Shown here: positions 34,126-38,831 of the stretch, piece by piece
Layout of the letters: the number at the start of each line of letters is the position of its first letter
Numbering within the stretch: position 1 is the stretch's first letter
Assembly (NCBI RefSeq): GCF_024298765.1
Contig: NZ_CP101210.1
DNA from: Escherichia coli
Lineage (GTDB): Bacteria > Pseudomonadota > Gammaproteobacteria > Enterobacterales > Enterobacteriaceae
Reading direction: 5' to 3' (one strand)
DNA length: 64,000 bases
Position numbers and translations under genes: made by a program
Notes under the pieces: generated by a model
What the model was told of the DNA's origin: nothing
Database searches by the model: none
What the model saw: the letters and a program-made list of their open reading frames with translations, nothing else

Positions 34126-36063
34126 TCAGTAACGACGTCCCCATTCCGTGGCGCTCATCAACGTCGGTTTATCCCCCATGAAATAGCGGTAGTAAGCGTC
34201 ATAAGCCAGCACGTTCTTCACATAACCGCGCGTCTCGGAGAACGGAATACTCTCGACAAATGCCACAGCGTCGATACGCCCGGCGCTGTTGCCAAGCCAG
34301 GTTCGCACCCGTCCAGGTCCGGCGTTATAAGCTGCTGAGGAGAAAATACGGTTATTGCCAAACTGCTGATAAACATATTGCAGGTAACTGGTGCCAATGT
34401 TGATGTTCGTTTCCGGATCCAGCAATTGCCCAGGGCTGCTATAACCAGGAATAGAGAACATCTTCACCGTATGGGTCGCCGTGCCCGGCATAATCTGCAT
34501 CAGGCCGCTGGCCCCTACCGGTGATTTCACTTTCGGATTCCAGGCGCTCTCCTGACGGGCAATCGCCATCGCATAGCTTTGCGGGATCTCCTTCCCACTG
34601 GTGTAACGTTTGAAAAGATCGTTGTAGGCCAGCGGGAACCTCTCTTCCAGATGATCCCAAAGCTTCCCGGCGATCGTTGCCTGAACGCTAAGATCCCACC
34701 ATTGGTTATTGAAAGCATACCGAGCCAGTTGCGCCTGCTCTGTTTTTGACTTGCTCTTCACCAGATTGGCCCACTCGCTACGCGCGGTATTATCGAGATT
34801 CCAGTACATCAACTCGCGCACGCGCGCCATCTCCGGCCCCTGAGTCAGGGCGCTGTCAACATTCTGCGGCGCTTTATCAATCTTCAGCTCATACTCTTCA
34901 CCGATGCGTTGTGCTGCAACCATCGGGTAGAAACCACGCTGTTGCATGAGTTGATGCAAAATCTCTTTTGCTTCAGCTTCACGTCCGCGTTCCAGCAGTA
35001 AATCCGCCTGCCAGTAACGCCATTCATCTTTCTCTTTCGCCTCCATCGGCAAACGCGCCAGCCAGGTATTCAGGCCGCGACGATCGCCGGTGCCAAGCGC
35101 CATTCGCACGCGCCGTTCAATAAGCGAAGTAGATTGCGAACGCATAATGGCGTCATCGCGCCATTTCGCCTGCTCATCGGTGACATCATTGCCCATCAAA
35201 CGCCAGGCGACGATATCGCGCAGCTCCTGAATCTGATCTTCATTAAGCTGCTGCGCCTGGGCAAGCGACGGGATCATCAGCCGTGCATTTTCAGCATCCT
35301 GCCGCGCCACACTGGCAAACGCCACCGCCGCCATTTGACGGGTAAAATCGGTCGCTCCGGTTGTACGCGCGAAGGTCAGTACCGTATTAGGGTTGTTCGC
35401 CAGTGAAATGATTGCCGAGGCGATAGTCTGGTAATCGGCAGGCATCTGCCCTGCCAGCACTGTTACGAGTCCAGTGTTACCCGCTTTCATCGCCAGACGG
35501 ATACGCTCTAAATACGCCAGCGGATCTTGTTTACCTGACGCACGCCAGACGCTAAATAACTTGTCACAGGCGTTAGGCTGGCTCTTGCCGGTTAGCCACA
35601 GCTCTTTCGCCCCTTGCCAGGCTTCTTCACTCTGCCCGGTGTTCCATTTCGCATAGTAGTAATTACATTGCGCTTCGGTAGTTCCGGGCTTTTCCGGACT
35701 AAAGGCTAACAAGCCACGCCAGTCTTCACGCCGCGCCAGTTCATTGACGAAACGAGATTGCAGCGTGCGAGCGGGAGGAAGCGTGGGGTTAGCGCGAACA
35801 AAGTTAGTCACCGTCACCGCCGGTTGATTCATCAGGTCATCGGTGATCTGGCGGTATTCCAGGTAGGGATAAAGCGGATAATCCTTCAGTCCAGGCATCA
35901 TTTGTTCGACCACATCCATTTGTCGATTATCCCAGGCCTGCTTGATTTGGGCGTAGCGGCTACGCTGCTCATCCAGTGAGTCGGCTCGCGCCACGCTGCT
36001 GACCGTCAGCAGACAGACACCGGCAGCCAACAGCCGCCAGGTAACTTGTTTGGCTTTTTCCAC
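34126..36063 (-). CDS. slt: soluble lytic murein transglycosylase Slt70
   Basis: ORF 34126..36093; probable GTG start at VEKAKQVTWRLLAAGVCLLTVSSVARA (signal peptide); C-terminal lysozyme-like domain. Confidence 0.93.
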   Translation of the reverse strand: MEKAKQVTWRLLAAGVCLLTVSSVARADSLDEQRSRYAQIKQAWDNRQMDVVEQMMPGLKDYPLYPYLEYRQITDDLMNQPAVTVTNFVRANPTLPPARTLQSRFVNELARREDWRGLLAFSPEKPGTTEAQCNYYYAKWNTGQSEEAWQGAKELWLTGKSQPNACDKLFSVWRASGKQDPLAYLERIRLAMKAGNTGLVTVLAGQMPADYQTIASAIISLANNPNTVLTFARTTGATDFTRQMAAVAFASVARQDAENARLMIPSLAQAQQLNEDQIQELRDIVAWRLMGNDVTDEQAKWRDDAIMRSQSTSLIERRVRMALGTGDRRGLNTWLARLPMEAKEKDEWRYWQADLLLERGREAEAKEILHQLMQQRGFYPMVAAQRIGEEYELKIDKAPQNVDSALTQGPEMARVRELMYWNLDNTARSEWANLVKSKSKTEQAQLARYAFNNQWWDLSVQATIAGKLWDHLEERFPLAYNDLFKRYTSGKEIPQSYAMAIARQESAWNPKVKSPVGASGLMQIMPGTATHTVKMFSIPGYSSPGQLLDPETNINIGTSYLQYVYQQFGNNRIFSSAAYNAGPGRVRTWLGNSAGRIDAVAFVESIPFSETRGYVKNVLAYDAYYRYFMGDKPTLMSATEWGRRY

Positions 36064-36171
36064 AAGCGCATCCTCTAAGTGTAAATACATCAATGCAGCG
36101 TCATGCCGCGTAATAGATTTATGCTAACCAGTCATTGCCGTTTACGCCACGTTACGGACACTTTTTTACTT

Positions 36172-36300
36172 TTATACTCTAAATAATTCGAGTTGCAGGA
36201 AGGCGATAAGTGAGTGAGTCCCCAGGAGCTTACAGAAGTAAGTGACTGGGGTGAGCGAGCGTAAGCGCAGCACATGCAACTTGAAGTATGACGAGTATAC
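36172..36300. repeat. ERIC (IRU) intergenic repeat element
   Basis: gtgagtccccaggagcttacagaagtaagtgactggggtgagcgagcg...gcaacttgaagtatgacgagtat matches the ERIC consensus core. Confidence 0.75.
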
Positions 36301-36398
36301 TGCGAGGGTGATCGACCGGCTGGGATTAGATAAGGAAACAGGCTACACTTCGCCTTTGAAAACTCATCATCACGATAAACATAGAGGCGAAGTCCAAC

Positions 36399-38066
36399 GT
36401 GGCTCAATTCGTTTATACCATGCATCGTGTCGGCAAAGTTGTTCCGCCGAAACGTCATATTTTGAAAAACATCTCTCTGAGTTTCTTCCCTGGGGCAAAA
36501 ATTGGTGTCCTGGGTCTGAACGGCGCGGGTAAGTCCACCCTGCTGCGCATTATGGCGGGCATTGATAAAGACATCGAAGGCGAAGCGCGTCCGCAACCGG
36601 ATATCAAGATTGGTTATCTGCCGCAGGAACCGCAGCTGAACCCGGAACACACCGTGCGTGAGTCCATTGAAGAAGCGGTTTCTGAAGTGGTTAACGCCCT
36701 GAAACGCCTAGATGAAGTGTATGCGCTGTACGCCGATCCGGATGCCGATTTTGACAAGCTGGCCGCTGAACAAGGCCGTCTGGAAGAGATCATTCAGGCT
36801 CACGACGGTCACAACCTGAACGTTCAGCTGGAGCGTGCGGCGGATGCGCTGCGTCTGCCGGACTGGGACGCGAAAATCGCTAACCTCTCCGGTGGTGAGC
36901 GTCGTCGCGTGGCGTTGTGCCGCCTGCTGCTGGAAAAACCAGACATGCTGCTGCTCGACGAACCGACGAACCACCTGGATGCCGAATCCGTGGCGTGGCT
37001 GGAACGCTTCCTGCACGACTTCGAAGGCACCGTTGTGGCGATTACCCACGACCGTTACTTCCTCGATAACGTGGCGGGCTGGATCCTCGAACTGGACCGT
37101 GGTGAAGGTATTCCGTGGGAAGGTAACTACTCCTCCTGGCTGGAGCAGAAAGATCAACGTCTGGCGCAGGAAGCTTCACAAGAAGCTGCGCGTCGTAAGT
37201 CGATTGAGAAAGAGCTGGAGTGGGTACGTCAGGGGACTAAAGGCCGTCAGTCGAAAGGTAAAGCACGTCTGGCGCGTTTTGAAGAGCTGAACAGCACCGA
37301 ATATCAGAAACGTAACGAAACCAACGAACTGTTTATTCCACCGGGACCGCGTCTTGGCGATAAAGTGCTGGAAGTCAACAACCTGCGTAAATCCTATGGC
37401 GATCGTCTGCTGATTGATGACCTGAGCTTCTCGATCCCGAAAGGAGCGATCGTCGGGATCATCGGTCCGAACGGTGCGGGTAAATCGACCCTGTTCCGTA
37501 TGATCTCCGGTCAGGAACAGCCGGACAGCGGCACCATCACTTTAGGTGAAACGGTGAAACTGGCATCGGTTGATCAGTTCCGTGACTCAATGGATAACAG
37601 CAAAACCGTTTGGGAAGAAGTTTCCGGCGGGCTGGATATCATGAAGATCGGCAACACCGAGATGCCAAGCCGTGCCTACGTTGGCCGCTTTAACTTTAAA
37701 GGGGTTGATCAGGGTAAACGCGTTGGTGAACTCTCCGGCGGTGAGCGCGGTCGTCTGCATCTGGCGAAGCTGCTGCAAGTTGGCGGCAACATGCTGCTGC
37801 TCGACGAACCGACCAACGACCTGGATATCGAAACCCTGCGTGCGCTGGAAAACGCCCTGCTGGAGTTCCCGGGCTGCGCGATGGTTATCTCGCACGACCG
37901 TTGGTTCCTCGACCGTATCGCCACGCACATCCTGGACTACCAGGATGAAGGTAAAGTTGAGTTCTTCGAAGGTAACTTTACCGAGTACGAAGAGTACAAG
38001 AAACGCACGCTGGGCGCAGACGCGCTGGAGCCGAAGCGTATCAAGTACAAGCGTATTGCGAAGTAA
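36399..38066 (+). CDS. ettA: energy-dependent translational throttle ABC-F ATPase EttA (YjjK)
   Basis: 555 aa MAQFVYTMHRVGKVVPPKRHILKNISLSFFPGAKIGVLGLNGAGKSTLLRIMAG..., two ABC cassettes. Confidence 0.96.
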   Translation: MAQFVYTMHRVGKVVPPKRHILKNISLSFFPGAKIGVLGLNGAGKSTLLRIMAGIDKDIEGEARPQPDIKIGYLPQEPQLNPEHTVRESIEEAVSEVVNALKRLDEVYALYADPDADFDKLAAEQGRLEEIIQAHDGHNLNVQLERAADALRLPDWDAKIANLSGGERRRVALCRLLLEKPDMLLLDEPTNHLDAESVAWLERFLHDFEGTVVAITHDRYFLDNVAGWILELDRGEGIPWEGNYSSWLEQKDQRLAQEASQEAARRKSIEKELEWVRQGTKGRQSKGKARLARFEELNSTEYQKRNETNELFIPPGPRLGDKVLEVNNLRKSYGDRLLIDDLSFSIPKGAIVGIIGPNGAGKSTLFRMISGQEQPDSGTITLGETVKLASVDQFRDSMDNSKTVWEEVSGGLDIMKIGNTEMPSRAYVGRFNFKGVDQGKRVGELSGGERGRLHLAKLLQVGGNMLLLDEPTNDLDIETLRALENALLEFPGCAMVISHDRWFLDRIATHILDYQDEGKVEFFEGNFTEYEEYKKRTLGADALEPKRIKYKRIAK

Positions 38067-38121: not shown

Positions 38122-38406
38122 TTAATGGGAGGCAAGTTCCCGGAAAAAGGCAGGATTTTCTTTAATTGTGGCAAGTACTTTTGCAGCCAATCCCGTAGGA
38201 TTTCTTCGCTTCGATTCCCAGCTTTTAATGGTATCCACACTGGTTCCCAGAGCTTTTGCCATCTCACTTTGCGAAACGTTGAGTTGCTCACGAATAGCTT
38301 TAACATCCGCAATTTCGTAGCGGGTCACCCGTGCAGGTTCTTTTAAACCTTGTTTAATCTCGACAGCCTCTTCCAGAGAGGTTTTCAACTCATCAAAAAA
38401 ACTCAT
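38122..38406 (-). CDS. HigA-2-like antitoxin with C-terminal XRE-type HTH
   Basis: 94 aa MSFFDELKTSLEEAVEIKQGL...IREQLNVSQSEMAKALGTSVDTIKSWESKRRNPTGLAAKVLATI; XRE-type HTH with the W-E-x-x-R-R-x-P turn seen in HigA/MqsA-type antitoxins; start 1 nt after the toxin stop. Confidence 0.75.
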   Translation of the reverse strand: MSFFDELKTSLEEAVEIKQGLKEPARVTRYEIADVKAIREQLNVSQSEMAKALGTSVDTIKSWESKRRNPTGLAAKVLATIKENPAFFRELASH

Positions 38407-38407
38407 T

Positions 38408-38740
38408 TTATATCTCGCCTTTGAGCAGTTTCGTCAACTTCTTTAGTTGAGCTTTTTCCGTATCTGTCAGACTATCTTTGGCATTTTTCGGATAGGCCAT
38501 AATCAAATAAATAATCTCTTCCGTCGCCAGAAAGTAAATTATTCTGACACTGCCACTTTTTCCCTGTGAACCCGCAACCATTCGGACTTTACGCAATCCA
38601 CCAGTCTGCTGAATGAGATCACCTTTATCGGGAGTTCCGATGAGTTCTTTTTGCAATTCCTTTAATTCATCATCGGTTGCAATCTGCTTGATCTGACGCG
38701 TAAACATTGGCGTCTCTATAAATATTATCGCCTTACCCAT
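38408..38740 (-). CDS. HigB-2-like toxin (RelE/ParE superfamily)
   Basis: ORF 38408..38818; likely start MGKAIIFIETPMFTRQIK preceded by GGGAGGGG RBS (110 aa); conserved core LIQQTGGLRKVR...GSVRIIYF...IIYLIMAYPKNAKDSLTDTEKAQLKKL resembles Vibrio cholerae HigB-2 as recalled from memory. Confidence 0.75.
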   Translation of the reverse strand: MGKAIIFIETPMFTRQIKQIATDDELKELQKELIGTPDKGDLIQQTGGLRKVRMVAGSQGKSGSVRIIYFLATEEIIYLIMAYPKNAKDSLTDTEKAQLKKLTKLLKGEI

Positions 38741-38757
38741 TACCCCTCCCTGGCAGG

Positions 38758-38768
38758 TACATTGTACA
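38758..38768. promoter_or_regulatory. GTACA-N-TGTAC inverted repeat upstream of the toxin gene; candidate operator
   Basis: Palindrome gtacattgtac about 20 nt upstream of the toxin ATG, with a further GTACA copy near 38786. Confidence 0.35.
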
Positions 38769-38831
38769 CCAAAATGGAGTGCTAAGTACACTTTTGAATC
38801 AGTAATCCCACTCAACATCTTATAAAGATGA

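Follow-up and report, generated by a model that had tools for sequence, protein, structure and literature searches.

Whether ERIC elements are mobile in Escherichia coli is debated, and we know of no transposase established as their cognate enzyme. The family is represented by the 127-nucleotide E. coli consensus of Wilson and Sharp, reprinted by Delihas (2007; PMC2759123, Table 1a), and an estimate cited in a review puts the number of copies in K-12 at about 30. According to reviews, ERICs that lie within Yersinia transcripts change mRNA levels via an RNase E site. Presence or absence of an element at a given site is a known kind of polymorphism; the slt-ettA locus analysed here is, as far as could be searched, undescribed, and we found no paper linking ERIC with ettA, yjjK or slt in the literature searched.

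Identity, extent and fold of the element

The window (the whole 64,000-nucleotide stretch of E. coli DNA that we analysed) carries a complete ERIC element of 127 bp, counting both terminal TAs, in the spacer flanked by the divergent genes slt (-) and ettA (+), where the sequence-only reading had located it (Table 1). No RefSeq feature covers the element. That reading gave its extent as 36172-36300; the element is indeed there, and its true ends lie one base inside each of these limits. The ERIC core that had been recognized, cccaggagcttacagaagtaagtgactggggtgagcg, is located at 36221-36257, and a 32-nucleotide ERIC core pattern matches the window once and 100 shuffles not at all. The ERIC2 primer site is conserved at 22 of 22 positions and the ERIC1R site at 20 of 22, using the primer sequences of Versalovic et al. 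1991.

The identification had been made to depend on a full-length alignment, and the element aligns with the published E. coli consensus from end to end, with identity at 111 of 127 positions and one compensating pair of 3-nucleotide indels, and without gaps with the Salmonella copy SeRU-1 (113/127). The imperfect palindrome of roughly 127 bp described from the sequence is exactly that long and consists of 25-nucleotide terminal arms, 80% complementary, that enclose a central hairpin. As RNA, the + strand is predicted to fold with -55.7 kcal/mol (z = -5.6) and the - strand with -39.8 kcal/mol (z = -4.0), and no shuffle of either strand was as stable. When seven ERIC copies (this element and six others from E. 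coli, Kluyvera, Enterobacter and Citrobacter) were folded together, the hairpin was kept, with both-sided changes at 9 of the 39 pairs. The element combines several features of a MITE, namely terminal inverted repeats, a target-site duplication and a presence/absence polymorphism with a clean empty site; MITEs lack a transposase and are moved in trans by a cognate one. Within the known ERIC family of mobile repeats, the slt-ettA element is an ordinary copy of full length.

A stable hairpin in a spacer could also be an independent small-RNA gene or a palindrome that arose by chance, with no mobile element involved. Our Rfam search covered 35500-37000 at permissive thresholds, and Rfam holds no ERIC family. 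The best match, RF02818 (V_AS5), spans the whole element and scores 36.3 bits against a gathering score of 96; a fragment of isrH scores 17.7 bits against 45, and a match to sroD is likewise sub-threshold. An annotated RNA family was rejected on these scores. What speaks for a small RNA are the weak matches to V_AS5 and isrH, both far under their gathering scores. The model of V_AS5, the Vibrio antisense RNA AS5, aligns over its positions 1-129 with the same hairpin layout; given the score, the slt-ettA element is not a member, and V_AS5 is probably itself a Vibrio ERIC-like repeat. A chance palindrome is ruled out by the full-length identity to a known multi-locus repeat together with the clean empty site. 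The empty site, the consensus alignment and the copies at multiple loci already effectively refute both versions, and we give them virtually no credence.

The two open reading frames that overlap the element had been suspected of being artefacts of the repeat, and this suspicion holds: neither is annotated in RefSeq, and no Pfam family reaches its threshold in either of them, the plus-strand frame giving only a weak match (E 0.095, 13 bits vs a cut-off of 27). In the empty allele the minus-strand frame ends at the target TA (TAA) after 117 aa, so that ERIC lengthens a pre-existing frame by 42 aa, followed by 13 aa past the element. The stop-free reverse frame of ERIC responsible for this extension, YTRHTSSCMC...NSNYLEY, was already known (Delihas 2007, PMC2759123, Table 1a). 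We rejected the coding hypothesis for both frames on the sub-threshold Pfam results, the lack of annotation and the composition of the frames. The element encodes nothing, its coding capacity being limited to the 42-codon stop-free frame.

Table 1. Coordinates of the ERIC element, the flanking genes and the spacer features in the window
Feature	Position	Strand	Basis or remark
slt/sltY	34126-36063	-	GTG start; annotated in a 100%-identical RefSeq record, E. coli 2014C-3338
Conserved spacer blocks	36098-112; 36122-33; 36146-53		75-species profile
Spurious ORF	36132..36650	-	84 aa antisense to ettA + 33 aa leader + 42 aa ERIC stop-free frame + 13 aa
Conserved T-rich block GGACACTTTTTTAC	36157-70		75-species profile
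Full-length ERIC element	36173..36299	+ (strand of the ERIC2 primer)	Alignment, fold
TA target site, left copy of duplication	36173..36174		Filled/empty-site alignment
Left terminal inverted repeat	36173..36197		Pairs with right arm in seven-copy consensus fold
Conserved ERIC core	36214..36257		ERIC1R site 36214-35 (-), 2 mismatches; ERIC2 site 36236-57 (+), exact
Central hairpin	36220-33/36238-51		Repeat analysis
Spurious ORF	36242..36532	+	Starts within ERIC, enters ettA out of frame
Right terminal inverted repeat	36275..36299		Repeat analysis and seven-copy consensus fold
TA target site, right copy of duplication	36298..36299		Filled/empty-site alignment
Conserved block GCTGGGATT	36320-28		75-species profile
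Conserved block GGCTACACTTCGCC	36341-54		75-species profile
ettA -10 hexamer TACACT, preceded by GC	36344..36349	+	Outside ERIC; block >=90% conserved in 75 species
ettA transcription start	36355	+	44 nt before the GTG at 36399; converted from the published -44
Conserved Shine-Dalgarno region	36384-97		75-species profile
ettA	36399-38066	+	GTG start; annotated in a 100%-identical RefSeq record, E. coli 2014C-3338

Insertion polymorphism and history of the filled allele

The slt-ettA spacer measures 335 bp in the window and 206-210 bp in K-12, O157:H7, EC958 and Nissle. The comparison of spacer lengths among strains that the sequence-only reading had proposed resolves into a clean 125-bp insertion (335 bp filled vs 210 bp empty): aligned to the window, the empty spacers of K-12 HST04 and 266917_2 (210 bp each) and of EC958 (206 bp) leave a clean gap of this length. 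The empty site, CTTTTACTGCG, has a single TA, and the filled site reads CTTT-TA-(123 bp)-TA-CTGCG. Because one TA in the empty site corresponds to two that flank ERIC in the filled site, we assign the TA as a target-site duplication.

A 935-bp query of the locus matches nearly all of the 5,426 complete E. coli genomes; in most of them it is 87% covered, in two pieces spanning 810 bp, and a 187-bp query that spans the junction is covered to at least 80% in only 125 genomes (2.3%). The earlier statement that ERIC copies are variably present is strongly borne out at this locus, where about 98% of complete E. coli genomes have an empty site. Filled strains include E. coli C, WG5, PCN033, APEC O2-211 and APEC O78:H4. 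An 810-bp query from which ERIC had been deleted was unable to separate the two states, as filled sites were joined as one place and ranked first; a 72-bp query with only 27 bp left of the junction did separate them, and several hundred genomes have the empty site on the window's identical 72-bp local haplotype. E. albertii and two Salmonella subspecies have slt-ettA spacers of 206-208 bp, and the empty site is therefore ancestral. ERIC, a non-autonomous miniature transposable element, would then have inserted at the TA within the E. coli lineage.

Small changes also occur around the target. EC958-type strains lack 4 bp right beside the target TA (CTTTTAC----GGGGTG), and Z135-3 carries three substitutions at 36300-36303; even apart from ERIC, variation has a small hot spot in the gap between the conserved blocks.

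In E. coli the filled allele is found on no fewer than three flank backgrounds, about 2% divergent in slt and ettA and represented by the window and the APEC strains, by the C/RM9088/STEC276 group and by PCN033; ERIC together with about 490 bp around it is identical in every one of them. Only 5 sites in 1.8 kb of slt distinguish the empty strain 510016 from the filled strain C. SCPM-O-B-8794, which came from a scan of species-representative genomes and whose record is titled E. coli, has flanking slt and ettA about 5% diverged and carries ERIC at the same TA, identical at 127 of 127 positions; its right flank departs from the window from 7 bp beyond ERIC. In the filled strain 23CRST022, ERIC contains two substitutions. 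The closest other E. coli copies that we found, both full length, lie between yeiS and preT (strain SE11, 95.3%) and between cusF and cusC (K-12, 93.7%), 6-8 substitutions from the slt-ettA copy; among the best matches of empty genomes there was no identical donor copy elsewhere in E. coli, the best reaching 95.3%. The cusF-cusC copy lies within an operon and is presumably co-transcribed, whereas that in the slt-ettA spacer is upstream of the ettA promoter as mapped. A megablast search, which undercounts divergent copies, places ERIC in 5,425 of the 5,426 genomes, at a median of 5 sites per genome and 9 at most.

The finding of an invariant element on diverged flanks (at least four haplotypes), with no identical donor in view, favors spread by homologous recombination. 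On this comparison of haplotypes, the filled allele most likely moved between lineages in this way; repeated insertion at the same TA is possible, and the flank break in SCPM-O-B-8794 is awkward for one simple recombination tract. The same distribution over four diverged haplotypes would also arise if the element were ancestral in E. coli and had been precisely and repeatedly lost, so that the roughly 2% of genomes with the filled allele would be relics and not recipients. ERICs reportedly evolve more slowly than their surroundings, which also speaks for such a history. The outgroups E. albertii and Salmonella are empty, however, and nothing longer than the 2-bp TA repeat flanks the 125 bp. 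Loss by slippage would be expected to proceed via the 6-bp TATACT repeat (36173-78 and 36296-301) and to leave a 2-bp footprint (TTTTATACTGCG), which occurs in none of the empty alleles compared in the spacer alignment and by the 72-bp query. Moreover, an absence of substitutions over 127 bp in lineages 2-5% diverged is unlikely for an old insertion. We regard ancestral presence with repeated loss as very improbable and retain recent insertion with spread by recombination as the preferred history.

Two other differences among strains lie close by. At the yjjX-trpR junction (about 33713), 2.4 kb from ERIC, the window lacks a palindromic pair of the REP/BIME type of about 97 bp that is present in 510016, Z226-5, C, RM9088 and STEC276, a second repeat presence/absence polymorphism. 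Downstream of ettA (window 38122-38818, -) E. coli strains have three alternative gene contents: a short nadS, nadS with a RelE/ParE-family toxin, or a LysR / aldo-keto reductase / SDR island. The version with nadS and the toxin occurred in strains whose flanks match those of the window exactly.

Position relative to the ettA promoter

A degenerate DNA pattern for the EttA N-terminus collected 120 loci from other species, 93 of which show the divergent slt-ettA arrangement, with spacers mostly of 200-255 bp. In a conservation profile of 75 normal spacers from 75 enterobacterial species, the insertion point lies in the only poorly conserved stretch of the spacer, about 25 bp long, and in two other species the same gap holds unrelated extra DNA. 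ERIC would thereby have landed in a permissive gap between the slt-proximal and the ettA-proximal conserved blocks.

Mendoza-Vargas et al. (2009; PMC2760140, Table S1) report a start of yjjK (= ettA) at -44 with the -10 box aaagGCTACACTtcgc (GCTACACT); this start is a single K-12 454 read of the lowest quality class. It coincides with the most conserved block of the spacer. Relative to this one-read start, the only one published for ettA, the right end of ERIC is at -56, and the ettA core promoter, the 55 bp upstream of it and the whole slt side are untouched by the insertion. The supplements of Kim 2012 and of the Shigella M90T study gave no start for ettA, and neither these nor Mendoza-Vargas 2009 gave one for slt. 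Reading the sequence by eye, we saw nothing convincing as a sigma-70 or sigma-54 promoter of slt. A promoter scan reported no promoter-like site in the region and was too insensitive to find even the mapped ettA promoter; a terminator scan yielded one terminator-like site, inside the slt coding sequence.

Nine bases of the ettA -10/+1 region (36347-36355) are perfectly complementary to nine in the Shine-Dalgarno region (36385-36393; ACTTCGCCT / AGGCGAAGT), and both arms are conserved in the 75 species. A role for this pairing in RNA is doubtful without a start farther upstream, since the mapped ettA start comes just after its left arm.

Because it ends 56 bp short of the published start, ERIC is probably absent from the ettA mRNA, and the core promoter is probably intact. 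A small effect on expression is what its place suggests, upstream of the start and within the segment of the spacer that is conserved least, and the insertion is probably near neutral. Judged from position and conservation, we think it likely that a mobile element inserted passively in a permissive gap and affects slt and ettA little, if at all. The insertion does put an extra 125 bp (about 12 helical turns) between the T-rich block GGACACTTTTTTAC and the ettA promoter, and this block could be a functional upstream site for ettA. Additional promoters further upstream, which would transcribe ERIC, are possible.

A stronger effect would be expected if ERIC were transcribed, either in a longer leader of ettA or slt or from a promoter made at one of its junctions, so that the hairpin altered mRNA stability or translation. 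The strand with the very stable predicted fold is the ettA sense strand, the RNase E site in Yersinia offers a precedent for co-transcribed ERICs, and elements of the ERIC type lie inside the ettA leader in other genera (see below). In addition, -10-like hexamers arise from the insertion: TATACT on the + strand at either junction, and TATAAA on the - strand at the left one. Yet good -35 partners are missing for these hexamers, and no promoter-like site came out of the scan; ettA has a single mapped start, 56 bp downstream of the element, and the start-site data do not support an upstream promoter. Since the Yersinia-type mechanism needs co-transcription, it applies to the slt-ettA element only if this element is co-transcribed. 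An action through the leader is therefore, in our estimate, unlikely, and passive insertion into the permissive gap is the reading we prefer.

Elements in the ettA leaders of other genera and comparison with known ERICs

In several Citrobacter species, and in Kluyvera ascorbata, Klebsiella indica, Kosakonia and Phytobacter, the ettA leader contains an ERIC or ERIC-like element, placed after the -10 block and ahead of the Shine-Dalgarno sequence, in the 150-330 bp that precede the start codon. These elements use at least two TA sites other than that used in E. coli and share one orientation relative to ettA, and sister taxa of their carriers have empty sites. In C. amalonaticus ku-bf3 and Citrobacter sp. 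HRGM_0066 the element, which has internal insertions, sits at CTC-TA-TTCATCAC. A TA 8-12 nt before the Shine-Dalgarno sequence is occupied in Kluyvera ascorbata, C. youngae and C. braakii, by a divergent ERIC subtype in C. gillenii, Citrobacter sp. Res13 and Klebsiella indica, and by a short ERIC form in Kosakonia and Phytobacter. With an nhmmer profile built from seven copies, 8 of the 15 ERIC matches in 1.06 Mb of these loci fall within the slt-ettA spacer; all 8 are on the ettA sense strand, and the 7 elsewhere divide into 3 (+) and 4 (-). This count of spacer enrichment was made post hoc, on species that are not independent samples, and is suggestive of a hot spot for ERIC insertion, or retention, upstream of ettA.

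The leader elements resemble the E. coli copy in belonging to the ERIC family or to a divergent relative of it, in their orientation relative to ettA and in their TA targets. They differ from it in having inserted at other TA sites, which precede the Shine-Dalgarno sequence by 8-30 nt and follow the -10 block, and some carry internal insertions of about 70-140 bp. Being downstream of the conserved -10 block, they should be part of the ettA mRNA. Across Enterobacteriaceae the apparent tally is at least five separate insertions at no fewer than three TA sites, in one orientation. EttA is a translational throttle, a regulator of translation under energy stress. One could picture the region upstream of ettA as a recurrent landing site where ERICs are retained because the hairpin tunes EttA expression, with the E. 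coli copy an advantageous young allele spreading by recombination; we hold this to be distinctly unlikely.

As an ERIC copy the element is routine. As a polymorphism it is clean and datable, with matched empty sites and several haplotypes, and provides a useful test case for whether a repeat spreads by transposition or by recombination. It adds a variable priming site for ERIC-PCR typing, and the natural filled (E. coli C) and empty (K-12) strains are a ready-made comparison beside the ettA promoter. The cross-genus pattern of leader elements is the only part that might repay more work.

Compared with known ERICs, the slt-ettA copy has the same length of 127 bp, the conserved core and primer sites, terminal inverted repeats of the form TATAC...GTATA and the TA duplication. 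Like them it is intergenic, one of several copies per genome, has a stop-free frame on the reverse strand and differs in presence or absence among strains. ERICs are characterized by an extragenic position inside transcribed regions; this copy is intergenic, and it ends 56 bp upstream of the one mapped ettA start, a single read. No ERIC occupies this locus in K-12, O157:H7 or the B2-type strains examined. The termini and the segment TGCATGTGCTGCG are closer to Salmonella SeRU-1 than to the E. coli consensus, and in structure the copy does not differ from known ERICs.
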